This document shows positions 6,154-61,042 of a DNA stretch of 64,000 bases, piece after piece (position 1 is the stretch's first letter; every line of letters starts with the position of its first letter). This stretch comes from Pseudomonadota bacterium. Lineage in GTDB: Bacteria; Pseudomonadota; Alphaproteobacteria; Sphingomonadales; Sphingomonadaceae. Position numbers and translations under genes: made by a program. Under the pieces are notes generated by a model. It searched no databases. It saw only the letters and a program-made list of their open reading frames with translations, and was not told where the DNA came from. Location of the stretch: the NCBI GenBank assembly GCA_023424095.1, contig JAFAEG010000030.1, positions 6,674 to 70,673 of the forward strand. The letters run 5' to 3'.

Positions 6154-7827
<1,674 letters not shown>

Positions 7828-7832
7828 CGCCG

Positions 7833-25771: not shown

Positions 25772-28092
25772 CTTTTCTCTTTGCTAAGGTCATCAACGCG
25801 CGGCTTGTCCACGCGGTTCTCATCGGCGCCACGGATGGGCTCGCCGGAGTTCAGCCGGGCGAGCGCGGCCAGGTCGAAGGTCAGGCGAACCCGGGTGCCG
25901 CCGCCGTCGGCATCCTCGAACATCACATGTCCGCAATGGTCTTCGACAATCTTCTTGACGATCGCGAGGCCCAGGCCCGTGCCCTTCGCCCGCGTCGTCA
26001 TATAAGGCTCGGTCAGCCGCTTGCGCTCGGTCGGCAGGCCGATGCCGGTGTCGCTGACGACGATCGCCAGCTCGTCCCGCTCGACCGCGATCCCCATCGC
26101 GACGCGGTCCTGGCTCGTGCCCTCCGCGTCCTCGCGGCGCTGCTCGATCGCCTCGACCGCATTCTTGACGATGTTGGTCAGCGCCTGCCCGATCAGCCGC
26201 CGGTCGCACAACATGGTCGGTGCCGGCTCCGGCAGATCGAGCGTGAACTTGATGTCGGGGTGCGCGACCTCGTGCAGGAACAGAGCCTGCCGTGCGATCT
26301 CGCCGATCGCCTCCTCGCGGAACACCGGCTTGGGCATTTGCGCGAAGGACGAGAATTCATCGACCATTCGCCGCAGGTCGCCGACCTGCCGGACGATCGT
26401 CCCGGTCAGTTTCTCGAACGTCGCCGGATCGCTCTCGATCTCCTTGCCATAGCGGCGCTGCAGCCGTTCGGCGGCGAGCTGGATCGGGGTGAGCGGGTTC
26501 TTGATCTCGTGCGCGATCCGCCGCGCGACGTCCGACCAGGCCGCCCGGCGCTGGTCGACCAATTGCTCGGTAATGTCGTCGAAGGTCAGGATATAGCCGG
26601 CATCGGTCTTCACCCGCTTGACCGCGAGCGTGTGGACCTCGCCGTCGCGGTTGATCTGGACGACGTCCTCGCCCTCCTCGACATCGAGATGCTGTTCCAG
26701 CTCCGGCGCAAGCTCGGCGAGCGGCTGACCGATCACGGCGCGCTCGTTGGTGCGCAGCAGGTCCTCGGCGGACGGATTGATCAACTGTACCCGCCGCTCC
26801 AGGTCGACCGAGACGATGCCGGCAGTGACCCCCGACACCACCGCCTCGATGAAAGCGCGGCGATTCTCGACCTGGGTGTTGGCCGCGACGAGTGCGCCGG
26901 TCTGCTCCTCGACGCGGGTCGTCATCCGATTGAAGGCCTGGCCCAGCGTGCCGAGCTCGTCCCGCGCCCGCGCCCCGGGCACACGGGCCGTCATGTCGCC
27001 CTCTGTCACGCGCCGCGCCGCTGCCACGAGCAGGCCGACCGGCCGCACCATTCGATCGGCCAATTGCAGCGCGATCCAGATCGCCACGGCCACGATCATC
27101 AGCGAGACGATGAAGAGTGCGGCGTTGAACTGGAACTGATACTGGCGCGAGCGATCGAGGACGGACTGGTATTCGGACGCCAGGCCTTCCGCCGACCGTG
27201 CCATGCTCGAGAGCTGCGTAGAGTCCCGCGCGCCATAAACGTAGAGCCGGACGGATGGATCATCCGTGTCGAGCCGGACAATGCTCTCAATCCGATCCTC
27301 AAGGTCGAATTTGACCTTCACTTGGCCAGGCGCAAGAGCGAGCAGCTCGTCCGCCCGGAAGCGACTTTCCAGCGGCCGATCATAGAGGTTCACGGCCCCC
27401 TGCACCTGGATGTCGCCATTCTGACTGACGGTCAGAATGGCCATTTCGTTCAGTTTCCGAAGTGCCGTCTGATAGACCATGTCGTTGTAAAAGCTGGCGT
27501 CGTCAAAGCTTCGCGTGTCTGCCGACACATCCTGCGCCATTGCGAGCAACTCCTCCTGCACCTGGGTGAGTTGCTCCTGGCGATATTGATCGACGAGGCT
27601 TCTCGCATTGGTGAAAACACCGCTCGCTTGATCGGAGAACCAGAAGTTGATCCCGCTTTGCAGCAGCAAGGAGGCGAAGATCACCACCAAGAGGGTCGGG
27701 ATACTCGCGATTAGCGAGAAGATCGCCACAAGTCGGACATGAAGCCGGCCTCTGCTCCCGATCTGCGTCCTCGCCGCGCGTCGGATCGCAAATCGCCTGG
27801 CGAGCAGGACCAGCATTGCCATCGCCGGGATGAGATTCGCGACAAGCAGTCCTGCAACGAGCGGCGGGCTGAGAAGTCCGTCGTCCTCCCCACGTGACGT
27901 CACGATAAAATAGGTCGCGGTTGCGACCCCAATCATCAGCAGGATCGTGGCCAGTTCCACGAGCGGCATCAGGCGGCCACGCTCACTGGCGACGGTCAAG
28001 CGGCGCAGCCAGCGCGGGCGCTTGCGGCGCGGCTCCACGGCCGCGGCCGCGCCCTCGCCATTGGTCTGAATCATGCCCGCTGCCGCATCCAC
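25768..28092 (-). CDS. ntrY: Sensor histidine kinase NtrY
   Basis: N-terminal TM/periplasmic region, HAMP and PAS domains, the H-box HEIKNPLTPIQL, and an ATPase domain (GTGLGLAIVKKIVEDH). It overlaps ntrX by 4 nt. The start is GTG at 28092 or ATG at 28074. Confidence 0.88.
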   Translation of the reverse strand: MDAAAGMIQTNGEGAAAAVEPRRKRPRWLRRLTVASERGRLMPLVELATILLMIGVATATYFIVTSRGEDDGLLSPPLVAGLLVANLIPAMAMLVLLARRFAIRRAARTQIGSRGRLHVRLVAIFSLIASIPTLLVVIFASLLLQSGINFWFSDQASGVFTNARSLVDQYRQEQLTQVQEELLAMAQDVSADTRSFDDASFYNDMVYQTALRKLNEMAILTVSQNGDIQVQGAVNLYDRPLESRFRADELLALAPGQVKVKFDLEDRIESIVRLDTDDPSVRLYVYGARDSTQLSSMARSAEGLASEYQSVLDRSRQYQFQFNAALFIVSLMIVAVAIWIALQLADRMVRPVGLLVAAARRVTEGDMTARVPGARARDELGTLGQAFNRMTTRVEEQTGALVAANTQVENRRAFIEAVVSGVTAGIVSVDLERRVQLINPSAEDLLRTNERAVIGQPLAELAPELEQHLDVEEGEDVVQINRDGEVHTLAVKRVKTDAGYILTFDDITEQLVDQRRAAWSDVARRIAHEIKNPLTPIQLAAERLQRRYGKEIESDPATFEKLTGTIVRQVGDLRRMVDEFSSFAQMPKPVFREEAIGEIARQALFLHEVAHPDIKFTLDLPEPAPTMLCDRRLIGQALTNIVKNAVEAIEQRREDAEGTSQDRVAMGIAVERDELAIVVSDTGIGLPTERKRLTEPYMTTRAKGTGLGLAIVKKIVEDHCGHVMFEDADGGGTRVRLTFDLAALARLNSGEPIRGADENRVDKPRVDDLSKEKS

Positions 28093-35024: not shown

Positions 35025-35170
35025 CACGCCCCGGCGAGCCTCCGATTAACCCGATGTAGAAGCTTCGGCACGAATGAGACGGGTCGGCTCCAGATCCTCC
35101 AGAATTGCGACGCATGACCGTGTCGACATTCGGCAGGGCAGCCGGGAAATGTCGGAGCAGCGCGGGGCAG

Positions 35171-36268
35171 ATGGGCATGAATGAACTCGAGGCGTCCAGC
35201 GATTCGTCCGCCTATGAAGTGCCTGCTGCCGTGGATGAATTCGGCAGGCTGACGGATCATTGCGTCCGGCAAGCGCTGGAGATGATAGACACGCACGGCC
35301 TGGTCATCCTGACCGGCCTGCTGTCGGACGAGGAAGCGGATTTCGGCCTGGAGCTGATGCGCCAAACCATCGACGATCCGGATCGCAGCCGCTGCTCCTT
35401 CGCCAGCGAGACCGACAATCGCTACGTGCGCCGCGATTTCTGCTCCCTTCCCTCGACGCCGCCTGTGAAGAGCTTTGCCGCCACCTTGTGCCAGCGTCTG
35501 GAGGGCGTCCTGTCGGAATATTGCGGCCGGTCGCGTCCGCTTCTCGAGATCATCACCCTGACCAGCTATCTCGGCTCATCGCATCAATATATTCACCGCG
35601 ATCCGGCCGGCGTGATCAGCCTTCTGGCCGCCGTGGAAGACGTCTCGGAGCAGCAGGGGGGAACGGCTTTCATCCCCGGGACGCACATGTACGGCGGCGC
35701 CGAATACAAACATGGCGGCGCGGCCCATGCGTTGGTGGAGCTGTTTCGCACCAAGTGTAATTACAGGATCTTTCGCCATAATCTGAAGAAATTATGGGCG
35801 ATGCGCGGGGACAAGCAGACCCCGCTTGCGCCTGGCGAGTTCAGGGACCGGGTGTTTTCAACCAAGTGGGATCAGCATCAGCCAAATCTGCTGCGCTTCG
35901 TGATGGGGAAGAATTCCCAATTCAGCATTCGCATGCTCGGCCCGCGGCGCTTGTGGAAACTCTATCGCCAGCGCAAGCGCCTCGGCAGCCTGTTCCAACT
36001 GGTCCAGACGGCACCTCGGAAGGGGAGCGTCATCCTCTATCGGAGCGATTTGCTCCATGGCGGCCCCGACAATAGGTCGCCCCATCCCCGGCGCTTCTTC
36101 GGCATGAGCATCGCGCGGGACATCATCGAACCCAAATATTGGCATGATGGCTATTCGCCGCACCCCACGCTGATTTCTCAGCCGATGTGTTTCGGCGACC
36201 TTCTGGACGCTCCCCCGCTTCCGGTGCCGTCCCGAGCGGCTCGCCGCCACCTGCGAGTCTCCGGATAA
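35171..36268 (+). CDS. Putative Fe(II)/2-oxoglutarate dioxygenase (PhyH-like)
   Basis: Contains YIHRDPAG (HxD), GGTAFIPGTH and a distal ILYRSDLLHGG. GC is lower than in the flanks. The start is uncertain (35105, 35171 or 35177). Confidence 0.5.
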   Translation: MGMNELEASSDSSAYEVPAAVDEFGRLTDHCVRQALEMIDTHGLVILTGLLSDEEADFGLELMRQTIDDPDRSRCSFASETDNRYVRRDFCSLPSTPPVKSFAATLCQRLEGVLSEYCGRSRPLLEIITLTSYLGSSHQYIHRDPAGVISLLAAVEDVSEQQGGTAFIPGTHMYGGAEYKHGGAAHALVELFRTKCNYRIFRHNLKKLWAMRGDKQTPLAPGEFRDRVFSTKWDQHQPNLLRFVMGKNSQFSIRMLGPRRLWKLYRQRKRLGSLFQLVQTAPRKGSVILYRSDLLHGGPDNRSPHPRRFFGMSIARDIIEPKYWHDGYSPHPTLISQPMCFGDLLDAPPLPVPSRAARRHLRVSG

Positions 36269-40634: not shown

Positions 40635-41723
40635 TCAGCGAAAGATGCGCCGCACCTTTGCCGGGGTCCTGAGCCACGCGCCGATGCTTGCAGGATCATG
40701 GCGCAGGTCCCGCGCCGCATCGCCGATCCGCCAGGTCGCCTTGCGGATTCTCCCTTCGAACCTGCCCCTGGCGGCAGCGCTCACGAAGCGTCGCCGCGCC
40801 GCCTCCGGATCCGCGCCGGAGCCGGCTGGAATCGGCTCGCCCAGCAAGACCGCGGCGAGGCCCAGATTGTCGCGCAGCACCGCGACGAAACCGAAGCGGG
40901 TGAAGTGCCGGCTCTGCCAGTCCCAGTCGATTTGCGTGCCATGTCGTCGCCGCAGGACGGCGAGGTCGAGCAATTGCCGCAGGCTCGGCCGTGCCGCGCG
41001 ATAGCGCCGGTCGACGATCTGGGCATGGACGATGTTGTGAGCGACGCGCCAATCCACCCCGGGGATCAGGGCGACACCCTCCCCCACCGGCACCTCCGTC
41101 GCTTGCGCCAGCGCATTTTCCCGATCGACCATGCGCACAAAGTTGGGACGGGCCGCCGCATGATGGATTTCGACCGAGACCGCCGTCTCCTTATCGCGCT
41201 GCATGGGCAGATGATGGTGGCCCGGAGAGGCTTGTGTGTGCGCTTCGAAACCGGCGGCCGCCAACGCTTCGAACGCGCCCGGCGCTGAGTCGGGCGGCAC
41301 CATCAGATCGCAATCGAGCATCACCCGCAGGCCCGGCGCCGGATAATCCCCGGCCGCGAGCATCGCCGCCCCCTTCAGCAGCAACGGCTGGATGCCGATC
41401 GCATTGAGGGCTCGGGTCGCGCGTTCCAGCGTCGACAGCACGCGCCGGTTCCGCTCGCCATTCATTTGGAGCAGGGCCGCAAACACCTGGGCGACCGGCG
41501 GCGGAATGCCGTCCGCGCGATGGATGCACCAGCCCAGCGCCGGTGCGACCATCTGCTCGCTCGCCAGCGCGACGATCCGCTCCCAATCGGGCGGCGTTTC
41601 CGCAAAGCCCCGGCGCTCTCCCCCCGTGCAGCCGCTCAGCGATCCGCCGATCAAGATCAGGTCGCGCCAGTCCGCCAGAGCGTCGGCGCGCCGGGCCGCG
41701 AGATTGCGACCGGTGGCGGTCAT
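40635..41723 (-). CDS. Nucleotidyltransferase family protein (PF14907-like)
   Basis: 362-aa ORF with LLLKGAAML...VMLDCDLMV...H-rich segments resembling the uncharacterised nucleotidyltransferase family. Its ATG overlaps the stop of the upstream kinase (ATGA). Confidence 0.7.
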   Translation of the reverse strand: MTATGRNLAARRADALADWRDLILIGGSLSGCTGGERRGFAETPPDWERIVALASEQMVAPALGWCIHRADGIPPPVAQVFAALLQMNGERNRRVLSTLERATRALNAIGIQPLLLKGAAMLAAGDYPAPGLRVMLDCDLMVPPDSAPGAFEALAAAGFEAHTQASPGHHHLPMQRDKETAVSVEIHHAAARPNFVRMVDRENALAQATEVPVGEGVALIPGVDWRVAHNIVHAQIVDRRYRAARPSLRQLLDLAVLRRRHGTQIDWDWQSRHFTRFGFVAVLRDNLGLAAVLLGEPIPAGSGADPEAARRRFVSAAARGRFEGRIRKATWRIGDAARDLRHDPASIGAWLRTPAKVRRIFR

Positions 41724-42820
41724 CTTGCTGCCAGGGTCAGCGCGTTGACGCGCTCGACCGCCGCCGCGACGTCGCCATACGGCAAGGTGAAGGCCGGCGT
41801 TCGCTCGATCCAGCCGATCAGGGCCTCGATCCGCGCGTCCGTGACGGGAGCCTCGACGCTGAGGCCCGCCTCGATCAGGCGCTGCAACGCGTTCAACGCC
41901 GATACCGGCTCGGACTCCGGCGTGTCCCCGGGGCGGAAATGCGGAAAGATCAGCGCGCCGACCGGCTGAGGCTCCGGCCAGACCGGCGCGCCGAGTTCGA
42001 CCATCCGCGCCCTTGTATTCTTCACCTTGTAGGTCGTCGCCGTCCGAAGCGCCGGAAAGCGCTCGGCAAAGAGCGGCCAGCTTGCCTCCTTCACGCTCAG
42101 CGGCAGCGGCCAGGGCAATGCCTTGCCGGCCATCGTCAAAGGCACGGCGTCGTCTGAGCGATAGTCATAGCCGGCCCTGACCAGCGCCCCAATCAGGGTG
42201 CTCTTGCCGCTGCCCGACACGCCGGCGATGCACAGGCCGCCCTGCGGACCGGCCACCGCGCCGGCGTGGAGCATGGCCACCACCTCATGTTCCGGCCATG
42301 CCAGGCCGATCATCGCGCGGATCGCCTGCTGCAGGCCGTAGCCGCGGCCGCGCACCACGCCGTCGACGGTCGTGACGGTCAGTTCGTCCGCTTCAACGCG
42401 GACCTCGATGCGCGTTTCGCTCGCGCGGTCGCTTGCGGGAAAGCGCTCGATCCACCGCGCTAGGACGCCGGCATGACGGGGATGTTCGACCGCGATCTCG
42501 AACACGGCGCCGCGCAATCGGCAGCGCCATTCACCCGCCCAGGCGGCCGGGCCTGCAGGCAACAAGGTTTCGGGATCCGATTGGCCGCGGCCCGGATCAG
42601 CATCCGCGGCGATCGTCCATGCTGCGATCAGCGCCGAAACATCCTGTTCGACGCGGGCCACCGTCTCAGGCTGCCCCCTGCTGATCGCCGCGACGATCTC
42701 CGAGGCTGGGATCCCGGCATCGAAGGCGCGCCAGATGTTCGCGGCGTGGGCATCGAGCACGAGCAGGCGTTCCCGCTCCGCCGGCAAGACCAGCCCATCG
42801 CCGCACGGGAACGCGCGCAT
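41720..42820 (-). CDS. PqqD-like (RRE) domain fused to HprK-related kinase
   Basis: The first ~75 aa (LLVLDAHAANIWRAFDAGIPASEIVAAISRG..VEQDVSALIAAW) are PqqD-like. The C-terminal part has CIAGVSGSGKSTLIGALVRAGYDYRSDDAVPL, which parallels GPSGAGKSDLAIRLIDRGAMLVSDDYTQL of the genuine HprK at 50678. Confidence 0.75.
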   Translation of the reverse strand: MRAFPCGDGLVLPAERERLLVLDAHAANIWRAFDAGIPASEIVAAISRGQPETVARVEQDVSALIAAWTIAADADPGRGQSDPETLLPAGPAAWAGEWRCRLRGAVFEIAVEHPRHAGVLARWIERFPASDRASETRIEVRVEADELTVTTVDGVVRGRGYGLQQAIRAMIGLAWPEHEVVAMLHAGAVAGPQGGLCIAGVSGSGKSTLIGALVRAGYDYRSDDAVPLTMAGKALPWPLPLSVKEASWPLFAERFPALRTATTYKVKNTRARMVELGAPVWPEPQPVGALIFPHFRPGDTPESEPVSALNALQRLIEAGLSVEAPVTDARIEALIGWIERTPAFTLPYGDVAAAVERVNALTLAAR

Positions 42821-42842
42821 TCCCGTGGCATTCGCTAAGAGG

Positions 42843-43025
42843 TCAGACGACGCTTCCGCTGGAGACGAACTGGGCGGTCGCCTTGCTGCTCATCAGCACG
42901 GTCATGGACGGCGCGACATAGGCGCCCATCACGCCAAGCCGCTCGAGCACATCCTGCCGGGCCGCTTCCGCTTCTTCCTGCTGCGCGATGCTGAGATCGC
43001 CGTCGGAGCGCTTGTCGATAGTCAT
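42843..43025 (-). CDS. Candidate RiPP precursor peptide (60 aa)
   Basis: AAGAGGGGGG lies 8 nt before the ATG, third codon positions are G/C-rich like host genes, and it is the first gene of the kinase operon. An acidic, helix-prone N-terminal half is followed by a Ser/Thr-rich C-terminal half (..GVMGAYVAPSMTVLMSSKATAQFVSSGSVV). Confidence 0.55.
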   Translation of the reverse strand: MTIDKRSDGDLSIAQQEEAEAARQDVLERLGVMGAYVAPSMTVLMSSKATAQFVSSGSVV

Positions 43026-43131
43026 GGGAATTGTCCCCCCTCTTTACCATGTCCAGATTCCTCCAGAATGGCGGATTTTGCAACAATTTTTCATAAGGAT
43101 GTGTATGATTTCGGCTCCGTAAGGGGAACCA
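43026..43131. promoter_or_regulatory. AT-rich divergent promoter region of the peptide/kinase and radical-SAM operons
   Basis: 106-bp spacer; my hand count gives 13 G/C in the 40 nt at 43071-43110. It contains TTGCAA and TATGAT hexamers, but their spacing (20 nt) does not allow a confident promoter call. Confidence 0.35.
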
Positions 43132-44310
43132 ATGCGCGACCGGGTCAAACTCGTCTTCGTCCTCAGCCACGCCTGTCCGCTGAAGTGCAATTTCTGCTGC
43201 AGCACACGCGAGGTCGTCGGCCGCGGACGCATCCAGCGCGACACCATCCGCGACTCGATGCTGAACTTCGCTTGCGAGCCATCCGTTTCCGCTTTCGGCT
43301 TCACCGGCGGCGATCCCTTTCTCTATCTCGAAGACATCAAGGCCGCGGTGCGCGAGGCGCGCGATTATGGCGTCACCCAGCCCATCCAGATGACGACCTC
43401 CGCTTATTGGGCGGAGAGCCGCGAGCAGGTGACGGCGCTCCTGGCCGAACTGCAGGCACTTGGCCTCGACCAGCTCATGCTCAGCTATGATCATGAACAT
43501 GCCCGCTGGGTGACGCCGGACCAGATCCGCATGGTCTGCGAAGCTGCGGCCAAGCTTGGCATTCGCATCGTCATTTCCGCTACCTTCTGGAACGAAGGCG
43601 AGCAGCTCGCGGACCTCCTGCCGGACGTTGCGGCGGCGCCGGGCATCACCACGATCAACCACGTCGTCACGCCAATGGGGCGGGCGAAGACCTCGTCGGC
43701 ATGGCCCCGGCGCTACAATGTGCCGGTTCAGGCCAAAATGTCCTGCTTCATGCCGGGGGAATATCTGTTCTCCGTCTATCCCGACGGGGAAGTCTATCCC
43801 TGCTGTGGCGGCGGCTTCCAGATCGAGGCCGGGCTGTCCTGCGGCAACATCAACCGCGACCCGCCCGCGCGCATCCTCTACGCCGGGCTCGCCAATTTCC
43901 ACGTCCGCCTCGCCAAGGAATTTGGCTGGGGCGTGCTCTACGCCCTGATCGAGCGCGAAGCGCCGGAGCTGGCGGCCCAATTGCCGTCGATCGAGAATGC
44001 GGACTCGGTGTGCGAAATCTGCCGCGACCTGCACCTAAAGCTCGCCGAGCAACTCGCGCCTTACCAGCAGGTGATCGAACGCGAATATGCCCGCGCCCGC
44101 GCGACCCGCGAGTGGCAACGCGCGGGCGGTCCCGAGCGGCGGGCGATCCCGGGCGGTGAAGTCACGCTGGACGAACTGCTGGCGCGGATGGATTGTGATC
44201 GGGCGCTGCGGCTCGATTATCTCGCCGGCATCTTCCAACTCGGCGATGATTTCCCGGCCGAGCCGCCCCGCGAAGAGCCGAGCAACATCCGCACCGCCAG
44301 CTTCGCATGA
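43132..44310 (+). CDS. Radical SAM enzyme with C-terminal Cys-rich (SPASM/twitch-like) region
   Basis: CPLKCNFC (CxxxCxxC) at residues 15-22. Later come YPDGEVYPCCGGG, LSCGNI and CEIC cysteines. AAGGGG lies 6 nt before the ATG. Confidence 0.8.
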   Translation: MRDRVKLVFVLSHACPLKCNFCCSTREVVGRGRIQRDTIRDSMLNFACEPSVSAFGFTGGDPFLYLEDIKAAVREARDYGVTQPIQMTTSAYWAESREQVTALLAELQALGLDQLMLSYDHEHARWVTPDQIRMVCEAAAKLGIRIVISATFWNEGEQLADLLPDVAAAPGITTINHVVTPMGRAKTSSAWPRRYNVPVQAKMSCFMPGEYLFSVYPDGEVYPCCGGGFQIEAGLSCGNINRDPPARILYAGLANFHVRLAKEFGWGVLYALIEREAPELAAQLPSIENADSVCEICRDLHLKLAEQLAPYQQVIEREYARARATREWQRAGGPERRAIPGGEVTLDELLARMDCDRALRLDYLAGIFQLGDDFPAEPPREEPSNIRTASFA

Positions 44311-45785
44311 CGCAGCCCTCGACCGGCCCGGATGCCGCCGAGCTGGATCGAAAGGTGGCGGAAGCCCGCCAACTGCTCGACCAAGGCGACACCCATGCGG
44401 CGATCACCCTGCTGGGCGAATCCCTGCGCACCGACCATCGCCATGTCCCGACCCTGATCGCCTTCGCCCGCGCCCAATTCCGCTGGGGCAATCCGGCACA
44501 AGCGGAAGCCGCCTGCCACGCCGCTTTGGCCGAAGCGCCCGACAATGCGGAGGCGATTGCTCAACTCGGCGCCATCCTGATCCACGCCAACAAGGCCGAC
44601 GCCGCCCTCGAGCTCGCCGAGCGATCCCTGCGTGAACAGCCAGGTCACCGGCCCATCCGGCTCGTCCGCGCAAACGCCCTCAAAGTGCTTGGCCAGATCG
44701 ATCAAGCGCGAGAGGCTCTGCGCGACCTGATCGAAAGTGACCCCGACGACCCCTCGCCTCTCGCCAGCTATGCCGAGATCGTCACAGCGGACGACCGCGC
44801 CGGGTTGATCGTCCTTCTGCGTGCGGCCGTTGCCGAAGCAAATCCCGACCAATCGACCCGCCCGAGCCTGCATTATGCGCTCGGGCGGCTGCTCGACCAA
44901 AGCGGCGAGCATGACGAAGCCTTTGCCGAATTCGCCGCCGGCGCGCGACTGATGAAGGCGCGCATCGCCTATGACGAGCCATTCACGCTCAGCCTGTTCG
45001 ATCGCACGCGCGCCACATTCGCCACGCCAGCTGCACCCGTCCCCGGGGCGCCACATGCAGGGCCCACCCCGATCTTCATCGTCGGCATGCCGCGCTCCGG
45101 CAGTACCCTGATCGAGCAGATCATCTCCCGCCACCCCGACGCCTTTTGCGCGGGCGAGATCATGGCCTTCGCCGATGCTCTGGCCGCAGAGCGTCGCGCC
45201 GATCCTTCGCTCCCCCTCTTTCCGGAACTGGCGACCGGACTGGACGGAGCCGCATGGCAACGGGTCGGCGCGGCCTACCGCGGCGCAATGCCCAACGAAG
45301 CGTCAGGCAAGCGCATCCACGTCAACAAATTGCTCGGCAATCACCTCTTCATCGGCGCGATCCTGCAGGCGCTGCCGGATGCGCGCTTCATCATCGCCAG
45401 GCGCGATCCGCGCGATACCTGCCTGTCGATCTTCTCGCTGAATTTCGAACAGCACATTCCGTTCGGCTACGATCTGGGCGAACTGGGCCGCTATCACCGC
45501 GGCTGCGACGCCATCCTGGCGCACTGGCTGTCGATCCTGCCGGAGGCTCGCATCCTGGAGGTCGCCTATGAGAATCTGGTCACCGATTTCGAGGCCGAAG
45601 CGCGCCGGCTGATCGCTTTTCTCGACCTGGCCTGGACGCCCGAATGTCTCGACTTCCACAAGTCGGATCGTCCAGTTCTGACCGCGAGTTTGAACCAGGT
45701 GCGCCAGCCACTCTACGCCAGCTCGATCGGCCGCTGGCGCGCTTATGAGCGCCATCTGGAGCCGCTGTTCGAGGCGCTGGGCTAG
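44307..45785 (+). CDS. TPR-repeat sulfotransferase (TPST/Sulfotransfer_3-like)
   Basis: The N-terminal ~230 aa are TPR-like. The C-terminal part has the 5'-PSB motif IVGMPRSGSTLIEQ and RRDPRDTCLS (3'-PB-like). Its ATG overlaps the radical-SAM stop (ATGA). Confidence 0.8.
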   Translation: MTQPSTGPDAAELDRKVAEARQLLDQGDTHAAITLLGESLRTDHRHVPTLIAFARAQFRWGNPAQAEAACHAALAEAPDNAEAIAQLGAILIHANKADAALELAERSLREQPGHRPIRLVRANALKVLGQIDQAREALRDLIESDPDDPSPLASYAEIVTADDRAGLIVLLRAAVAEANPDQSTRPSLHYALGRLLDQSGEHDEAFAEFAAGARLMKARIAYDEPFTLSLFDRTRATFATPAAPVPGAPHAGPTPIFIVGMPRSGSTLIEQIISRHPDAFCAGEIMAFADALAAERRADPSLPLFPELATGLDGAAWQRVGAAYRGAMPNEASGKRIHVNKLLGNHLFIGAILQALPDARFIIARRDPRDTCLSIFSLNFEQHIPFGYDLGELGRYHRGCDAILAHWLSILPEARILEVAYENLVTDFEAEARRLIAFLDLAWTPECLDFHKSDRPVLTASLNQVRQPLYASSIGRWRAYERHLEPLFEALG

Positions 45786-45789
45786 GACC

Positions 45790-46101
45790 TCACTCGGGAC
45801 GCCGCACGACGACCAGCTTCTGATCCCGCAATTGCGCGACGAAACTGGACACGTCCGCCTGCACCGTCGCGACCTCGACACCGTAAAGGGCGGCGATCTC
45901 GACCGCGAGCGAGGCGATGGTGCGCTCTTCGGCGATCCGCTCCCAGATCTGCACGCCGATTGCGTTCAGTTCGACATAATCGCCTTGCTCGACGCCGATC
46001 AGCACCCAGCGCCCGTCGATCTCGACCGCATTTTCTTCGGGCCGGCGGGCAACGAGATCGTCAGGGTGAAGCGGAGCGGCTGGCATGATGCGGTGGGTCA
46101 T
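45790..46101 (-). CDS. PqqD family peptide chaperone (stand-alone RRE)
   Basis: VEIDGRWVLIGVEQGDYVELNAIGVQIWERIAEERTIASLAVEIAALYGVEVATVQADVSSFVAQL is typical of PqqD. The start is at 46101 or 46086. Confidence 0.7.
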   Translation of the reverse strand: MTHRIMPAAPLHPDDLVARRPEENAVEIDGRWVLIGVEQGDYVELNAIGVQIWERIAEERTIASLAVEIAALYGVEVATVQADVSSFVAQLRDQKLVVVRRPE

Positions 46102-46127
46102 GCCGGGTCGGGCGCGGGCGTGCAACG

Positions 46128-46565
46128 CTACGTCAGGTCCGGCTCGACCCAGCCCAACCGGGCCTCGCGCGAGAACAGCTTTTCCTTCGAATAGAACCGG
46201 AGCGGCCAATCGCGCCGCCCCTCCTCCGCCTGCAGCAAGGCGTTGACCCGTTCGCAAAGCCCCTTCCCCGTGCTTCCGGCGAGCGCTGCGCGGGCGGCGC
46301 GGATCGACACCTGGGTGATGGTTTCGTGATAGCCCTCGCTGTCGCTGTTCACGCCGCCGACGCTCTCATTGTAGCGGCGAATGAGGTCCGGCAGGTCGCG
46401 TTCCGGCACGATGTCGGGGCGCTCCAGGATGAGCCAGGCGCAGGCGACGAGATGGGCTTCGTGCGTCCATTCGGCGCGCGGCAGGCTGCGCGCGAGCATG
46501 CCCTCGCCGACGTGGCGCACGGCCGCGTCGTCGGCGAACAGGCGGACGGGATGATCGGTCATCAT
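46128..46565 (-). CDS. Hypothetical protein
   Basis: 145-aa ORF (MMTDHPVRLFADD..GYHETITQV..) following AAGGA, 26 nt upstream of and co-oriented with the PqqD gene. I recognise no family. Confidence 0.5.
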   Translation of the reverse strand: MMTDHPVRLFADDAAVRHVGEGMLARSLPRAEWTHEAHLVACAWLILERPDIVPERDLPDLIRRYNESVGGVNSDSEGYHETITQVSIRAARAALAGSTGKGLCERVNALLQAEEGRRDWPLRFYSKEKLFSREARLGWVEPDLT

Positions 46566-46581
46566 CGGATATCCTTCGGGC

Positions 46582-46619
46582 AAAAGAAAAGGGGCGCGCC
46601 GGTCGCCCGGCACACCCCT
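46582..46619 (-). terminator. Intrinsic terminator after pckA
   Basis: On the minus strand the sequence reads GGGGTGTGCCGG-GCGA-CCGGCGCGCCCC followed by TTTTCTTTT, about 20 nt after the pckA stop. Confidence 0.55.
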
Positions 46620-46641: not shown

Positions 46642-48288
46642 TCAGGCGGCCGGCATTACCGGCCGATTTTCGGCTTGCGCTTGTTGGCCGGCCGCCGGGG
46701 CGGAATCGCGGACGCTCTGATCGACATGCGCCAGGAACTTGGCGAAATTGTCGTTGAACAGTCCAACGAGCTTCTCGGCGGTCGCGTCATATTCGCCCTT
46801 GTCGGCCCAGGTGTCGCGCGGGTTCAGGATCGCGCTGTCGACCCCCGCCACCGCCTGCGGCACTTCGAAACCGAAATAGGGATCCTTGACGAATTCGGCC
46901 TGGTTCAGGCTGCCGTCGAGCGCGGCGTTCAAGAGCGCACGGGTCGCCTTGATCGGCATGCGGCTGCCGACGCCATATTTGCCGCCGGTCCAGCCGGTGT
47001 TGACCAGCCAGCAGGTGACATTGCCCTTGGCGATCCGCTCCTTGAGGAGGTTGCCGTAGACCGACGGGTGACGCGGCATGAAGGCAGCGCCGAAGCAGGT
47101 CGAGAAGGTCGCTTCCGGCTCGGTCACGCCGATCTCCGTGCCCGCGACCTTGGCGGTGTAGCCCGACAGGAAGTGGTACATGGCCTGATCGGCGGTCAGC
47201 CGCGCGATCGGCGGCATCACGCCGAAGGCGTCGGCGGTCAGGAAGATGATGTTCTTCGGGACGGGCCCAAGATTCTTCTCGCTCGAATTAGGGATGAATT
47301 CGATCGGGTAAGCGCCACGGCTATTCTCCGCGAGCGTCGCATCGTCGAGGTCGAGCTCACGCGTGACCGGATCGATCACGACATTCTCGAGCACGGTGCC
47401 GAAGCGCTTGGTGGTCGCGTAGATTTCCGGCTCGCTGTCCGCGCTCAGGCGGATCATCTTGGCGTAGCAGCCGCCTTCGAAATTGAAGACCGCGGTGTCC
47501 GACCAGCCATGCTCGTCGTCGCCGATCAGGGTGCGGCTCGCATCGGCGGAGAGCGTCGTCTTGCCGGTGCCCGACAGTCCAAAGAAGACGGCGGTGTCGC
47601 CATTCGGGCCGATATTGGCCGAGCAGTGCATCGGCATGATGCCGTCGACCGGGAGCAGATAGTTGAGCAGGCCAAAGACCGACTTCTTCATCTCGCCGGC
47701 ATACATGGTGCCGCCGATCAGGATCAGCTTCTCGGTCAGATTGACCGCGATCACCGTCTCCGAACGGGTGCCGTGGCGCGCGGGATCGGCGCGGAAGCTC
47801 GGCAGGTCGATGATGGTGAATTCGGGCGTGAAGCCGGCCAGCTCGCTCGCTTCCGGGCGAACCAGCAGGGTGCGGATGAAGAGGTTGTGCCAGGCCAGCT
47901 CGTTGATCACGCGGACGCGGACGCGATGCTCGGGCTGCGACCCGCCATAAAGATCGGCGGCATACAGCTCCGGCTTTTCGCCGAGCGCGGCCACGAAGTC
48001 GGCCTTCAGCGCGGCGAAATGCTCCGGCGACATGCTGGCATTATTGTCCCACCAGACATTGTCCTCGGTGGTCGCGTCGCGGACGATGAACTTGTCCTTC
48101 GCCGAACGGCCGGTGTGTTTGCCGGTCTTCACCACCAGCGGACCGTCCTTGGCGAGAATTCCCTCGCCCCGGCTCACCGCCTGCTCGACCAGCTGGGCGG
48201 TGCCCAGATTCCAGTTGAGCTTCGCACCGGTCGAGATGCCCTGATCGGAAAGGCCGAAGGCCGGCTCGCGAGTCGCCACCACAATCAT
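46642..48288 (-). CDS. pckA: Phosphoenolpyruvate carboxykinase (ATP)
   Basis: Contains [29 protein letters not shown] (kinase-1a) and IGDDEHGW. The start is about 48288; nearby GTG codons are also possible. Confidence 0.93.
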
Positions 48289-48439
48289 TCTCCAATAAGA
48301 AATGAGGCGCGGGGCGTCCCCGCCCGCGCCCCGATACCGCGACCGCATATAAGGAGCAGTCCGGCGCGGTCAAAGGGTAGCTTAAAACCGGGCGCTTGGC
48401 TACATCCCGACCCGAAACAAGAGGGTGAAGAGCGCGCGA

Positions 48440-49147
48440 ATGGCGATCACGATTGCGCTGGTTGACGATGACCGCAACATCCTGACGTCGCTGTCGGTGG
48501 CTCTGCAGTCGGAGGGTTTTGCGACCCGCGTCTATACGGACGGCGAAACGGCGCTGAAGGCGCTGACCGAAAATCCAGCGGATCTGGCCGTGCTGGATGT
48601 GAAGATGCCGCGCATGGACGGGATGGAATTGCTGCGCCGGCTGCGCGAACGCAGCGCGCTCCCGGTGATCTTTCTCACCTCCAAAGATGACGAGCTGGAC
48701 GAGGCGCTCGGCCTCGCCATGGGCGCCGACGATTATATCGCCAAGCCATTCTCCCAGCGCCTGTTGATCGCCCGCATCCGCGCCGTGCTTCGGCGGGCGG
48801 AGATGCGCGCCATTCCGGTCGGCGAGGAAGCGGCGGGCGAAGCGGAGGAACTGGTCCGCGGCCGCCTGTCGATGGATCCCGCCCGCCACCGGGTGCGCTG
48901 GGACGGCAAGGAAGTGGCGCTCACCGTCACCGAATTCATGATCCTGGAAGCGCTCGCGCAGCGCCCGGGCATGGTGAAGAATCGCAACCAATTGATGGAT
49001 GTCGCTTATTCCGACGACATCTATGTCGACGACCGCACGATCGACAGCCACATCAAGCGGATGCGCCGCAAGTTCCGCGTGGCCGACCCGGAGTTCAAGG
49101 GGATCGAGACGCTCTACGGCATCGGGTACCGCTTTGGCGAAGAGTGA
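48440..49147 (+). CDS. chvI: OmpR-family response regulator ChvI
   Basis: [17 protein letters not shown] receiver and a winged-helix C-terminus ([13 protein letters not shown]). It is divergent from pckA and upstream of chvG, as in other alphaproteobacteria. Confidence 0.88.
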
Positions 49148-50681
49148 CGAGCGCGACTTTTCCCTGGGCTGGACGCGCCGCGTCGCGATCCGGCACCGCA
49201 TTCTCGCGGTCAATATCTTCGCCCTGCTGATCCTCGCCGGGCTGATCTTCTATCTCGACGGCTTTCGCACCCGCCTGACCGAGGCGCAGCTGCTGCAGGC
49301 GCGGACCGAGGCGACGATGGTCGCCCGCGCGCTCGATGCGGCCGCGCCGGAGAACCGCGCCGCCTTGCTGCTGCGCATGGGCCAGGATGCGGGCGCACGG
49401 CTGCGCGTCTACCAGGCGGACGGCACAAGGCTGGCCGACAGTTGGGACGGCGCGCCTCCGACCTACGAAATGCGCGATCCCGAGGAGGAGCCGCTGCTGC
49501 GGCAAGTCGGGCTGGTGATCGACAATATCTTCGACACCGTGGTCGGCGCGTCGCAGCCGCCGCCGCTCGACCCGACGGCGGAAGACCGGCTCGCCACCTG
49601 GCCCGAGGCGCAGGCGGCGCTCACCCGCGGCGAGACGGTCACGGAATTGCGCCGCGCCCCGGAAGGCACCGCCTTCGTTTCCGCGGCGGCGCGGATCGAA
49701 GGCTCGGGCGACGTCCTGCTGCTGACCGTCAACGCGCGGGAGATCCGGCGCGTGGTGCGTTCGGAGCGGCTGGCTTTGGCCATCATCTTCCTGGTGACCC
49801 TGATCCTCTCGGTACTCGTGTCGCGCTATCTGGCCCGCACCATCGCCCGCCCGCTGCGCCGCCTGGCGATGGCAGCGCACCGGGTCAGGCTCGGCCGCGC
49901 CCGCGAAGTCGATGTGCCGCGCTTGCCGGGAAGACGCGACGAAATCGGCCTGCTTGCGCGCGCGCTGCACGACATGACCCATTCGCTGCGCGGCCGAATC
50001 GACGCGACCGAGGCCTTCGCCGCGGACGTGACGCACGAACTGAAGAACCCCCTCGCCTCGCTGCGCTCGGCCGTCGACAGCCTGGAGCGGACCAAGGACC
50101 CGGCCACCCAGAAACAATTGCTCGATATCGTCCGTCATGACGTCAACCGACTGGACCGGCTGGTGGTGGAGATTGCCGAAACCTCGCGGGTCGATGCCGA
50201 ACTCTCCCGCGCCCGCTTCGAACCGGTCGATATCGGCGCGCTGATCGCCTCCATGGTTCCCGCCTGGCAGGACCAGGGCGTGGTCCCCGTGCGGATCGAT
50301 TATGCACCGCCACGCGAAGCCGTGGTCGCGGCGGGCGAGGAATCCCGGCTGGCGCGGATGATCGGCAATCTGGTCGACAATGCTATCTCCTTCTCCCCGG
50401 CCGGCGGCACGGTCCGCATTCGCGTCCTGCGCGAGGAGCGCGAGGTCGTCGTGACGGTGGAGGACGAAGGCCCCGGCGTGCCCGAGGAGATGCGCGCCGC
50501 CATCTTCAATCGCTTCCACAGCGACCGGCCAGAAGAGGAGTTCGGGCGCCATTCCGGCCTGGGCCTCGCCATCGCCCGGGCGATCGCCGAAGGACATGGC
50601 GGCGGCATCAGCGTCGGCGACCGGCCGGACGGGCTGGCCGGCGCCTGGTTCGAGGCGCGCATTCCGCTGGTCCAGTCGTGA
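49134..50681 (+). CDS. chvG: Sensor histidine kinase ChvG
   Basis: TM segment, HAMP domain, H-box [12 protein letters not shown], and an ATPase domain ([16 protein letters not shown]). I infer the start at an in-frame TTG at 49134, because the ORF portion upstream overlaps chvI. Confidence 0.8.
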
Positions 50682-51115
50682 GTGACGATGGCCCGATCCA
50701 CGCCGGCTGCGTCGCGATCGGCGGACGCGGCATCCTGATCCTCGGCCCGTCGGGCGCCGGCAAATCCGACCTCGCCATTCGCCTCATCGATCGCGGCGCC
50801 ATGCTGGTGAGCGACGATTACACGCAGCTGCGAGTGGACGACGGCCAGCTCATCGCTTCGCCTCCCACGACCATAAAGGGAAAGATCGAGCTGCGCGGCG
50901 TGGGGATCGTCGAGCGGGAGAATCTGGCCGAGGCGCCGGTCGCGCTGGCGATCGACCTTGGCTCGCAGCCGCAGCGCCTGCCCGAACCGGCAAGCGGGAC
51001 ATGGCTGGGACAGACTGTCCCGCTCGTCGCCCTCAACGGCCTTGAGCCGTCAGCGCCGATCAAGGTAGAAGCGGCGCTCGCCTTGCATGGACTGATCCTG
51101 CCTTGCCGAATGTAG
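50678..51115 (+). CDS. hprK: HPr kinase/phosphorylase, short alphaproteobacterial form
   Basis: GILILGPSGAGKSDLAIRLIDRGAMLVSDDYT and ELRGVGIV are present. At 145 aa it lacks the N-terminal domain of long HprK. Confidence 0.85.
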   Translation: MSDDGPIHAGCVAIGGRGILILGPSGAGKSDLAIRLIDRGAMLVSDDYTQLRVDDGQLIASPPTTIKGKIELRGVGIVERENLAEAPVALAIDLGSQPQRLPEPASGTWLGQTVPLVALNGLEPSAPIKVEAALALHGLILPCRM

Positions 51116-52053
51116 CGGAACCCAAACGCGTGCTCCTCGTCACCGGCCTGTCCGGGGCCGGCAAGTCGACGGCGCTGAACACGCTCGAGGATATCGGCTG
51201 GGAGGTAATCGAAAACATCCCATTGTCGCTGCTCAGCCGTCTGCTGGCGACCCCTGCCCCGGCTGGCAGTACCGAAGACCGGCCGATCGCCATCGGTCTG
51301 GACAGCCGCACCCGCGGCTTCGACGCGCAGAAGATCGTTGGCCAGACAAAGGCGCTCACCGAAGAGCGGGGCTATCAGATCGAAACGCTCTTTCTGGAAT
51401 GCTCCGGCGCCGAATTGCAGCGCCGTTACTCGGAAACCCGCCGCCGCCATCCTCTGGCCACCGATCGTCCGGCCATGGACGGGATCTCCGCCGAGCGCGA
51501 GATGATGGCGACGTTGCGGCGTTGGGCCGACCATGTCATCGACACGACCGACACCGACACGAACGGCTTGCGCCAGCAGATTCGCCGGCGGTTCGGGGAA
51601 GCGCATGCGCCGACGCTGAGCATCCAGTCGTTCGGCTTCGCGCGCGGTTTGCCCCGCAATGCCGACCTCGTGTTCGACATGCGCTTCCTTCAGAACCCGC
51701 ATTGGCAGGTCGATCTGCGGCCGCTGACTGGTCTCGACGAGCCGGTCGCGCGGCACGTCGCGGCCGATCCCGCTTATGCCGACGCGGTCGGCAAGATCGA
51801 GGATCTGCTGATCACCCTGCTCCCGCGTTATCGGGCCGAGGGGAAATCCTATGTCACCGTGGCGTTCGGCTGCACCGGCGGACGGCATCGTTCGGTCCAC
51901 GTCGCTCAACGCGTCGCGGCACGGTTGCGCGACGCCGGATTTTCGCCCACGGTCGAACATCGCGATCTCGCCCTGCCGTCACGTGACGATGTGGAGGGCG
52001 GGTCTGGGCGGCCGACAGGGGAAACGGCCAGGGCGGCAATCCAAGGTGTTTGA
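51103..52053 (+). CDS. rapZ: RNase adapter protein RapZ (YhbJ family P-loop ATPase)
   Basis: Contains LLVTGLSGAGKSTALNTLEDIGWEVIENIP and a C-terminal GCTGGRHRSV motif. Confidence 0.88.
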   Translation: MPNVAEPKRVLLVTGLSGAGKSTALNTLEDIGWEVIENIPLSLLSRLLATPAPAGSTEDRPIAIGLDSRTRGFDAQKIVGQTKALTEERGYQIETLFLECSGAELQRRYSETRRRHPLATDRPAMDGISAEREMMATLRRWADHVIDTTDTDTNGLRQQIRRRFGEAHAPTLSIQSFGFARGLPRNADLVFDMRFLQNPHWQVDLRPLTGLDEPVARHVAADPAYADAVGKIEDLLITLLPRYRAEGKSYVTVAFGCTGGRHRSVHVAQRVAARLRDAGFSPTVEHRDLALPSRDDVEGGSGRPTGETARAAIQGV

Positions 52054-58405: not shown

Positions 58406-59160
58406 CCCGTTTTCGCCTCACCATCGAATATGACGGCCGCGATTATATGGGCTGGCAGCGGCAGGATCATGGCCCGTCGATCCAGCAGGCGATCGAGACG
58501 GCGATTGCGGAGATCGTGCGCCATCCGGTGACGCTGCATGCGGCCGGGCGCACCGATGCGGGCGTCCATGCCTATGCGATGACGGCGCATGTGGACGTAG
58601 AGCGGCCGATCAGCGCGCACCGACTGATGGAGGGCACCAACGCCAAATTGCGGCCGCAGACGATTGCGATCCTGGGCTCTGAGGAGGTGGACGAGGAGTT
58701 TCACGCGCGCTTTTCCTGCATCGGCCGGCGCTACATTTACCGCATCGCCAATCGGCGCGCGCCGCTGGCGCTGGACCAGGGGCGGGCCTGGCGGGTGCCG
58801 GTCACGCTCTACGCAGACGATATGAACAAGGCCGCGCAATATCTTGTCGGGCAACATGATTTCACCACGTTCCGCTCCGTCCACTGCCAGGCGCAGAGCC
58901 CGGTGAAGACGATCGACATGATGGTGGTGCGGCGAGTCGGCGCGATGATCGAGGTGGAGGTCGCGGCGCGCAGCTTCCTGCACCATCAGGTGCGCTCGAT
59001 GGTCGGCTGCCTGGAACTGGTCGGGCGCGGCAAGTGGAGCGCGAAGGATATGAAACGCGCGTTGGAAGCGCGGGATCGCGCCGCCCTTGGCTTCAATGCG
59101 CCGCCAGACGGACTTTATTTTGTCGAGGCGCGCTATTCGGAGCGGCCGAGGAACCTGTGA
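58402..59160 (+). CDS. truA: tRNA pseudouridine(38-40) synthase TruA
   Basis: The GTG at 58402 overlaps the fmt stop. Contains [20 protein letters not shown] and [11 protein letters not shown] (catalytic Asp). Confidence 0.9.
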
Positions 59161-61039: not shown

Positions 61040-61042
61040 GGC

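Follow-up and report, generated by a model that had tools for sequence, protein, structure and literature searches.

A predicted RiPP-type maturation cluster combining lasso-style tailoring enzymes with an EpeE-like radical-SAM enzyme in a Sphingomonadaceae contig

Background

Which product can be expected from a gene cluster that surrounds a 60-residue open reading frame (ORF) with a kinase, a transferase, a radical S-adenosylmethionine (SAM) enzyme and a sulfotransferase? The question is raised by positions 40635-46101 of a 64 kb stretch of the Sphingomonadaceae contig JAFAEG010000030.1, the whole of which is called the window here. The original prediction had described 40635-46565 as an orphan cluster that may serve an undescribed class of peptide that is ribosomally made and modified post-translationally (RiPP). 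All of its genes were recovered at the positions it gave, using ORF listing, codon-position GC and hidden Markov model (HMM) scans against Pfam and NCBIfam (Table 1), and HMM and structure searches backed its PqqD, HprK-type kinase, PF14907, radical-SAM and PF13469 assignments. The two ATGA overlaps it had reported (at the kinase/transferase and the radical-SAM/sulfotransferase joints) are present, as is its AT-rich divergent spacer of 106 bp. We consider it probable that the cluster is a peptide-maturation pathway of RiPP type belonging to an undescribed family, built from lasso-style tailoring enzymes and an EpeE-like radical-SAM enzyme. That the 60-aa peptide is the substrate of the cluster enzymes is at least as likely, and confidence in any particular modification site, proposed by analogy, is much lower.

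The putative precursor peptide and its family

The 60-aa product reads MTIDKRSDGDLSIAQQEEAEAARQDVLERLGVMGAYVAPSMTVLMSSKATA|QFVSSGSVV, in which an acidic N-region is followed by a conserved leader (conserved positions R23, L27, G31, Y36, A38, P39, L44 and K-A-x-A) and by a Ser-rich tail of nine residues. Homologous small ORFs, whose sequences align well, occupy the same position in every related locus (loci are numbered from L001). A word-indexed search with the 60-mer alone returned just 3 near-identical peptides, a search with an alignment of the small ORFs returned 34 small proteins, and an exhaustive profile search over 1.84 billion representatives brought in at least 1,074 proteins with E<=1e-3, of which 76 have E<=1e-10; almost every one measures 48-110 aa. 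The large repeat proteins P0112 and P0122 and a few matches of 220-250 aa were set aside as chance repeats or read-through gene calls. After an acidic N-region the family shares the consensus RR-E-A-L-K-K-L-G-K-Y-A-A-Y-T-A-P-A-M-L-x-L-L-x-S-x-K-A-x-A. Its tails are hypervariable, being Ser/Thr-rich, Gly-rich (ending GFSG), Cys-containing, Pro-rich or basic, and range from 1 to 80 residues, with 1-2 residues beyond the A-x-A site in some members. None of the Pfam and NCBIfam models recognises the peptides. Features by which RiPPs are generally defined are thus found here: a gene-encoded precursor with a conserved leader and a variable core, beside a modifying enzyme that bears a RiPP recognition element (RRE).

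Wherever the context is readable, the peptide gene adjoins genes for an HprK-like kinase and a PF14907 transferase. The strict order peptide, RRE-kinase, PF14907 occurs in the window and in L001, L002/3, L004, L040, L041/42, L044/45, L046, L048 and L056, with looser versions in L005, L007, L009 and L021. In L002 (tail HAVS), L044 (GFSG), L046 (AVAS) and L056 (ATSLAL) the peptide gene lies directly upstream of the kinase and PF14907 genes, and the surroundings of the trio in these four loci are unrelated. More distant peptides with RRxFL-type leaders adjoin kinase/PF14907 pairs in contigs of Campylobacterota, Bacteroidota, Anaerolineales and Hyphomicrobiales. Because the trio recurs beside further peptide types amid unrelated surroundings, peptide, recognition-domain kinase and transferase appear to be the core of the system. 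Judged from sequence, the window cluster represents one clade of a very large peptide, kinase and transferase family found across bacteria. Separately, L046 carries at 7803-8162 two tandem precursor-like genes of 58 and 53 aa (tails KAMAAS and KAAVAS) ahead of one PqqD-kinase/PF14907 pair.

Recurrence of the arrangement and its accessory module

The claim of orphan status did not hold: the architecture repeats elsewhere, with 40-90% identity across at least 14 further loci, and a gene order met again in so many independent contigs goes far beyond what chance would give. In L001, genes for PqqD, a tetratricopeptide-repeat (TPR) sulfotransferase and a radical-SAM enzyme stand head-to-head with a 55-aa ORF, a PqqD-kinase and PF14907, the proteins being 36-67% identical to those of the window, and the same head-to-head arrangement is seen in L004, L040, L041/42, L043 (frameshifted) and two JGI contigs. 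As regards co-occurrence in other genomes, for which the original prediction had called, L001, L004, L040/L048, L041, L043, L049-L055 and the two JGI contigs each combine genes for peptide, RRE-kinase, transferase and radical SAM, with the sulfotransferase counted where the contig extends far enough. A metagenome search with the radical-SAM alignment yielded 9 more loci, in 8 of which a divergent peptide and kinase unit lies alongside.

In every case seen, the module of radical SAM, sulfotransferase and free PqqD stands solely with Ser-Gly tails (QFVSSGSVV, ATVTSGSTN, QTITSGTTG, QALPESGVTN and others), whose pattern is x-x-[VIL..]-x-S-G-x-[TSV]-x, and the Ser-Gly of the tail is invariant in the radical-SAM-bearing clade. 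Loci with HAVS, AVAS, GFSG or ATSLAL tails have no radical-SAM/sulfotransferase module. On these sequence grounds the module appears to be an accessory to the trio.

Some relatives may add further sugar chemistry. In L001 (1002-3124) a gene for a 597-aa GT2 glycosyltransferase-methyltransferase fusion ends in overlap with the free PqqD gene, and DegT, GT1 and AsnB genes follow the transferase. The short contig L047 has, at 26-2310, a radical-SAM gene followed by a convergent PF14907 gene in place of the TPR-sulfotransferase gene.

The enzymes of the cluster

The kinase protein comprises a PqqD-like RRE at residues ~1-73 and a P-loop kinase of HprK/PEPCK fold at ~95-366. Residues 11-68 match PqqD PF05402 at 23.6 bits, barely above the gathering score, and the C-terminal half matches positions 94-280 of TIGR04352 (E 5e-17, 61.9 bits, cutoff 200), its best NCBIfam match; TIGR04355 was also matched. 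A Walker A sequence GVSGSGKS is located at 200-207 and a metal-site DD at 223-224, and H185, A186, G205, K206, T208 and D223 are invariant in the kinase alignment. An AlphaFold2 (AF2) model made from the family alignment (pLDDT 83.7) has an N-domain of three strands and three helices, the topology of an RRE, and a Foldseek search with it found ATP-PEPCK (E 2e-7) and HprK/P (E 1e-3, TMt ~0.5), with modest TM-scores. PEPCK and HprK/P are known structural relatives of each other, and the window kinase shows what marks HprK/PEPCK-fold kinases: the fold, a Walker A sequence of the type GxxGxGKS and, downstream of it, an acidic metal site. About 10 detectable relatives were returned by the word-indexed protein search. 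A genome-collection scan with the kinase alignment, in which the Walker A pattern is generic, gave only distant HPr-rel-A loci among the matches listed.

The transferase is a full-length match to PF14907 (NTP_transf_5) in which the putative catalytic D137-C-D139 (DxD) is present, and its gene lies immediately downstream of that for an HprK-like kinase in nearly all of ~40 loci. Characterised counterparts of this pair come from lasso peptides. The HprK homologues PadeK and PsmK phosphorylate the C-terminal Ser of linear lasso precursors (PMC6993621; PMC8498205), the substrate being the linear precursor and not the folded lasso (PMC8498205), and the DD of PsmK that corresponds to the metal-site pair of the window kinase is essential (PMC6993621). 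PsmN, of the same uncharacterised transferase type as the window enzyme, puts one or two hexoses on the phosphate placed by PsmK and requires D134/D136 (PMC6993621).

The radical-SAM enzyme carries the cluster motif C15-x3-C19-x2-C22 (PF04055) and further cysteines, with a marginal SPASM match (21.4 against 21.5 bits). The role given to it in the original prediction can be refined, since the PF04055 enzyme matches TIGR04078, the YydG/EpeE equivalog (E 1e-24, 87.3 bits, cutoff 300), and its only relatives in the PDB are the YydG structures 8ai1-8ai6 (E 8e-18, residues 11-300). The auxiliary-cluster cysteines C205, C224, C225, C294 and C297 align with YydG cysteines and are invariant in the family alignment, and the motif DGEVYPCC aligns with YydG C222/C223. 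Cys223 of EpeE, in this loop, supplies the hydrogen atom by which the C-alpha radical is inverted, and the T-SPASM domain holds a single auxiliary cluster (PMC13012085). Asp210 of EpeE has no aligned counterpart in the window enzyme, where an invariant Glu210 is one residue off. The enzyme thus appears, from its sequence, to be EpeE-like and not an EpeE orthologue, and by analogy it is a probable peptide epimerase.

The sulfotransferase has an N-terminal TPR part (~20-210), which resembles the PEP-CTERM TPR protein PrsT, and a TPST-like catalytic domain (~250-480) whose nearest solved relatives are the protein-tyrosine sulfotransferases TPST1/2. Both motifs for binding 3'-phosphoadenosine 5'-phosphosulfate (PAPS) are present, PRSGST at 262 (5'-PSB) and RDPRD at 366 (3'-PB), and the gene is kept after the radical-SAM gene in L001, L004 and L043. 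The free PqqD has the lasso PqqD chaperone NF033536 as its best NCBIfam match (52 bits, cutoff 80), matches PQQ_PqqD TIGR03859 weakly, and is homologous to the kinase-fused PqqD domain of relatives; its counterpart in L001 lies tail-to-tail with the sulfotransferase gene. Because an RRE domain is found in neither the radical SAM nor the sulfotransferase, the free PqqD is probably the peptide-binding partner of one or both.

A proposed maturation route

The sequences themselves show which genes are present, their catalytic motifs, the conserved synteny, the division of the peptides into leader and variable tail, and the tie between Ser-Gly tails and the radical-SAM/sulfotransferase module. From there a route can be proposed by analogy with the enzymes described above, on which every chemical step depends, together with the order of the steps, the modified sites and the product's fate and role. 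The leader would be bound by both PqqD-type recognition domains, that of the kinase fusion and the free-standing one. With ATP as donor, the kinase would place a phosphate on a Ser/Thr hydroxyl of the short C-terminal tail, for which the invariant Ser of Ser-Gly and a Ser/Thr beside the C-terminus are the candidates, and the PF14907 enzyme would then extend this phosphate with a hexose or a nucleotide-derived group, in the manner of PsmN. As a third step, the radical SAM may abstract a C-alpha hydrogen and return one from the YPCC cysteine to give a D-residue, a likely target being the hydrophobic residue two or three positions before Ser-Gly. Sulfation of a hydroxyl, either on the peptide itself or on its sugar, would come next, the TPR/TPST-like enzyme using PAPS as sulfate donor. 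Since no protease or exporter is encoded, we propose that a housekeeping enzyme removes the leader at A-x-A|Q, probably after export.

If this route is correct, it would constitute a new RiPP class based on a precursor family of more than 1,000 sequence clusters that database models do not recognise. The kinase/transferase pair, known only as an optional decoration of lasso peptides, would be an autonomous and widespread maturation system, and a function would be given to the uncharacterised gene pairs of HPr-rel-A type and to Pfam family PF14907. EpeE-type radical epimerisation would be extended beyond the Bacillota, and one peptide would carry phosphate, sugar, a D-residue and sulfate, a combination that we did not find described for any natural product. 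The signal-like leader would suggest use of the general export and processing machinery of the cell, and the way in which clusters are searched for would change, since genome-mining tools expect a protease and a transporter.

Leader, junction and export

Lasso leaders carry a Tyr-x-x-Pro-x-Leu/Met motif, and the window leader has Y36-x-x-P39-x-M41; one family member weakly matches lasso_leader_L3 (14 against 19 bits). The leader also looks twin-arginine-like. RR is present in 158 of 166 family peptides, a simple rule for twin-arginine translocation (Tat), namely RR-x-hydrophobic-hydrophobic followed by at least 13 uncharged residues, is passed by 161 of 170 peptides, and a basic residue stands ahead of the A-x-A site in family leaders. 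Two features count against a plain signal peptide of this kind: the window clade has R-Q, not R-R, and the N-region is net acidic (-4 in the window peptide, family mean -3.3) with low hydrophobicity. With an N-region charge of -4 and a maximum 11-residue hydropathy of 1.38, the window peptide was also judged to be neither a Sec-type signal nor a membrane peptide.

Of 170 peptides, 63 have the junction [AVST]-x-[AGS]|Q at a fixed spacing from Y-x-A-P, compared with a 3.1% background for Q, and this enrichment of Gln after A-x-A appears to define the junction. L004 encodes at 4748-5515, 10 nt downstream of the PF14907 gene, a glutaminyl cyclase (PF05096) that carries a lipoprotein signal (LFAGC), and the peptide of that locus reads ...KASA|QTITSGTTG. 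Judged by sequence, the L004 cyclase would fit export, cleavage before Gln and formation of pyroglutamate. It was rejected as a regular cluster member, being seen in L004 alone.

A Tat-type leader read by the RRE is an attractive but unproven idea that would explain why these loci are without a protease or exporter gene. In its full form, the trio would define a class of ribosomal peptides that is large, pan-bacterial and as yet unrecognised, with a twin-arginine-type export signal serving as the leader, and the PqqD domain of the kinase would read this signal as Tat proofreading chaperones do, retaining the peptide in the cytoplasm. Phosphorylation and phospho-glycosylation would occur while the peptide is held there, joined in the window clade by sulfation and by epimerisation through the first EpeE-type enzyme outside the Bacillota. 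The finished peptide would then exit by the general Tat route, and signal peptidase would cut it at A-x-A|Q. As one joint claim comprising all of these steps, we regard this scheme as doubtful.

Comparison with known systems

Tailoring in lasso clusters offers the closest parallel for the kinase and transferase, as in the tailoring sets of paeninodin (PadeK) and pseudomycoidin (PsmK/PsmN) an HprK-homologous kinase works on a linear precursor bearing its leader, with an uncharacterised nucleotidyltransferase of PF14907 type as partner. Putative sulfotransferases and a PqqD-type RRE, both also present in the window cluster, occur in lasso clusters of Firmicutes, and the leader motif Tyr-x-x-Pro-x-Leu/Met, the kinase DD and the transferase DxD are conserved. 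In contrast to lasso clusters, the window cluster has no cyclase, B2 protease or ABC exporter, its RRE is fused to the kinase, it includes a radical SAM and a twin-arginine-like leader, and its peptide family is separate and much larger. The window tail QFVSSGSVV contains no Asp/Glu, whereas lasso cores have a ring-forming one at positions 7-9, and in most of the 9-residue tails there is no acidic residue with which a ring could be closed. A study of a Pontixanthobacter genome described a lasso-type cluster with B2, a nucleotidyltransferase, sulfotransferases, PqqD and an Asn-synthase relative; the same tailoring set thus occurs with a cyclase in related bacteria.

The absence of an adjacent lasso cyclase or B2 protease, as the original prediction had it, was borne out by the Pfam/NCBIfam scans: no Asn-synthetase-like cyclase is encoded in the cluster, and no ORF adjoining it has a transglutaminase-like B2 domain. 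A cyclase hidden elsewhere in the window was rejected, as the sole Asn-synthase homologue of the 64 kb (59093-61039) is an XrtA/PEP-CTERM amidotransferase beside exosortase A, scoring 936 bits on TIGR03108 (cutoff 817) against 275 of the 525 needed on the lasso cyclase model. The Asn synthase of L001 was likewise rejected as a lasso cyclase, being a true AsnB (TIGR01536, 389 bits, above cutoff, against 206 of 525).

Among named systems, the one that on sequence appears to stand nearest to the trio is HPr-rel-A, which is uncharacterised and was defined from genome context as a TIGR04352 kinase, a TIGR04353 PqqD and an adjacent nucleotidyltransferase. PqqD, kinase and PF14907 stand in the same order in the window as in L014 of Sphingopyxis terrae, whose kinase scores 222 bits on TIGR04352, and in ~25 other loci; both HPr-rel-A partners are found in the window, PqqD being fused to the kinase and a PF14907 gene adjacent to it. 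The window kinase differs in failing the TIGR04352 cutoff, its PqqD is fused and not separate, and the cluster has an evident precursor gene and an extra radical-SAM/sulfotransferase module.

The epipeptide system (EpeX/YydF with EpeE/YydG) shares with the window enzyme the CxxxCxxC motif, the cysteine set of a single auxiliary cluster, the DGE-[IV]-YPCC loop with its H-donor Cys, and the lack of an RRE domain in the enzyme itself. Epipeptides have been described as restricted to Bacillota (PMC13012085), whereas the window host is alphaproteobacterium-like, its enzyme scores far under the family cutoff with Asp210 unaligned, its substrate is unrelated, and its partners are a free PqqD, a kinase, a transferase and a sulfotransferase. 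With RaxX/RaxST and eukaryotic TPST the sulfotransferase has in common the PF13469 catalytic domain, the PAPS-binding motifs and a peptide-linked context, and it differs in its fused N-terminal TPR, a tail without tyrosine and the lack of a secretion system of RaxA/B type.

The SynChlorMet cassette (ScmC/ScmD/ScmE/ScmF; TIGR04248-04251, PF27840), likewise uncharacterised, has an HprK-like ScmC, a PqqD relative and radical SAMs, and distant relatives of the window kinase (P0009 and the kinase of L056) match PF27840. Its models are not reached by the window proteins (ScmD 23 bits against 100), and its radical SAMs are SPASM maturases; to our knowledge, neither PF14907 nor a sulfotransferase is included in the definition of the cassette.

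Literature searches found nothing relevant on HPr-rel-A, TIGR04352, HprK-related kinases, the pairing of an RRE with an HPr kinase or the combination of twin-arginine and RiPP; they gave a single mention of PF14907, in an unrelated phosphonate paper, and two RRE surveys made no mention of kinases. No product, curated family or paper was found for the architecture of the window cluster, so that none of the three outcomes named as refuting the original prediction was seen. The undescribed peptide class of the original prediction therefore stands as a conserved RiPP-type cluster with no described product; it falls short of being categorically new, given the systems above, and its chemistry is drawn by analogy.

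Weighing the alternatives

Several observations weigh against a peptide-maturation pathway. The scores of the kinase (62 bits against 200) and of the radical SAM (87 against 300) fall far below the curated NCBIfam cutoffs, so function is transferred to both by analogy only, and the chemistry of the PsmN counterpart is not established in vitro. TPST relatives sulfate tyrosine, yet the window tail has no Tyr and the sole one, Y36, lies in the leader. There is no protease, exporter, immunity or regulator gene among those of the cluster, the glutaminyl cyclase link comes from the single locus L004, and in the canonical HPr-rel-A loci of Sphingopyxis/Sphingobium the peptide profile found no precursor. 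It should also be noted that the supporting loci are mostly short metagenomic contigs and that the neighbours of L001 and L005 are polysaccharide genes.

These polysaccharide genes (GT2-methyltransferase, DegT, GT1 and AsnB flanking L001; WecG and GT4-PilZ flanking L005) would suit enzymes that act on a cell-envelope glycan, through sugar phosphorylation/activation and exopolysaccharide sulfation, and not on a peptide, the small ORF then encoding a mini-protein, exported or in the membrane, whose part would be structural or regulatory. The PrsT-like TPR part of the sulfotransferase, the PEP-CTERM/XrtA locus 13 kb off in the window, and the possibility that PsmN acts merely indirectly on sugars (PMC6993621) point the same way. 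We nevertheless think this unlikely, since the cluster contains two PqqD-type peptide-binding domains, the only relative of the radical SAM is a peptide epimerase and the nearest relatives of the sulfotransferase are protein-directed, there are no glycan genes near the unit in the window, L044, L046 or L056, and the module follows the type of peptide tail. About as improbable is a precursor of a small intracellular metabolite or cofactor, of which just a few C-terminal residues, those around Ser-Gly, would be modified and excised; such a product would stay in the cell, so that no exporter need be encoded. PQQ and mycofactocin loci combine a radical SAM, a PqqD-type chaperone and a small peptide, which the window cluster mirrors down to the lack of an exporter or immunity gene, and the weak TIGR03859 match of the free PqqD, the invariant Ser-Gly in the radical-SAM clade and the members with 1-2 residues past A-x-A agree with this. 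Hypervariable tails of 1 to 80 residues are, however, unexpected for a cofactor, the leader resembles an export signal, L004 has a linked gene for a periplasmic glutaminyl cyclase, and no co-located oxidoreductase offers a user for the cofactor.

A little less probable again is that two systems are chance neighbours, a peptide/kinase/transferase unit and a radical-SAM/sulfotransferase/PqqD unit with another substrate. The units are divergently transcribed, the trio stands alone in many genomes, and in L047 the radical-SAM gene is followed by a transferase and not by a sulfotransferase gene. Against such a coincidence, the head-to-head placement with a peptide gene recurs in 8 of 9 independent radical-SAM relatives and in all full-length loci, a block of the spacer is conserved, no second small ORF is present, and the module occurs solely with Ser-Gly tails. 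Highly improbable, finally, is a decayed and productless lasso cluster that has lost its cyclase and B2, a history suggested by the lasso-like Y-x-x-P-x-[LM] leader motif, the weak lasso_leader_L3 match and the best score of the free PqqD being on the lasso B1 model. Kinase, PF14907, sulfotransferase and PqqD are also the accessory set of Firmicutes lasso clusters (PMC8498205). All genes are nevertheless intact, have a high GC at third codon positions (GC3) and keep their catalytic residues; many genomes preserve the architecture without a cyclase, at 40-90% identity; most 9-residue tails have no Asp/Glu from which to form a macrolactam; and the only Asn-synthase homologues are the PEP-CTERM amidotransferase and AsnB. 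Hence a dedicated peptide-maturation pathway of RiPP type is the reading that we prefer.

Layout of the cluster and its surroundings

The features of the cluster are listed in Table 1. Housekeeping genes flank both sides, namely SPFH/NfeD, DUF885 and DUF2171 genes on one and pckA followed by chvI-chvG-hprK-rapZ on the other, and the unit is for this reason taken to end at ~40635 and ~46101.

Table 1. Coordinates of the cluster features and of the adjoining hypothetical gene in the window
Feature	Position	Strand	Description
PF14907 nucleotidyltransferase gene	40635-41723	-	362 aa; Pfam E 9e-38, 130.7 bits (gathering 31.2)
PqqD-fused HprK-related kinase gene	41720-42820	-	366 aa
Precursor peptide gene (60-aa ORF)	42843-43025	-	GC3 0.84; GAGGGGGG ribosome-binding site (strong)
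Divergent spacer	43026-43131	.	106 bp; GC 0.46 (~0.67 in surroundings)
Radical-SAM gene	43132-44310	+	392 aa; PF04055, TIGR04078
TPR-sulfotransferase gene	44307-45785	+	492 aa; PF13469 E 9e-41, 140.9 bits (gathering 27)
Stand-alone PqqD gene	45790-46101	-	103 aa counted from ATG; PF05402 E 7e-17
Hypothetical gene	46128-46565	-	145 aa; no family

Within the spacer, a block of 47 bp (43061-43107, CTCCAGAATGGCGGATTTTGCAACAATTTTTCATAAGGATGTGTATG) is almost invariant across the window, L040 and L048 while the flanking codons vary, and the spacer with this block is presumably a shared promoter/operator. Scans of the spacer for a sigma-70 consensus, an Rfam family and an inverted repeat gave no match, and a sigma-54-like TGGC...TTGCA was rejected by eye for its wrong spacing.

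The hypothetical gene, which the original prediction had counted as a member, has no Pfam/NCBIfam match and no homologue in any related locus. Not being conserved with the cluster, it is set outside it and is probably not part of the system. As a candidate for the missing protease it was rejected, having no family match and no conservation, and its single-sequence AF2 model was unusable (pLDDT 43). A strong terminator-like hairpin lies just after pckA at 46590-46619 (-), with 13 pairs followed by a T-run. The GTG start at 46613, which would give a 161-aa form of the hypothetical gene, overlaps this hairpin, so the true start is probably the ATG at 46565.

The housekeeping genes directly beside the cluster (46642-52053) are pckA, chvI, chvG, a short HprK gene (50678-51115, PF07475) and rapZ. 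In tblastn the window kinase gave weak matches to hprK (E 8e-3) and rapZ (E 9e-4). That the cluster kinase lies beside pckA and hprK, the genes of its two structural relatives, is probably a coincidence of location.

Further off, 59093-63945 (-) is the start of an XrtA/PEP-CTERM exopolysaccharide locus that runs past the end of the window and includes an exosortase A with an EpsI domain (61043-62581) and a PEP-CTERM-system glycosyltransferase (TIGR03087, 62578-63945). A PhyH-like dioxygenase ORF of 387 aa at 35105-36268 (+), separated from the cluster by housekeeping genes, has a TTG start and a GC of 0.62 and GC3 of 0.76, below its neighbours, and may be a foreign insertion. The NtrY/NtrX pair (a sensor kinase and a sigma-54 activator) at 24374-28092 (-), with HflX downstream, shows ordinary alphaproteobacterial synteny.

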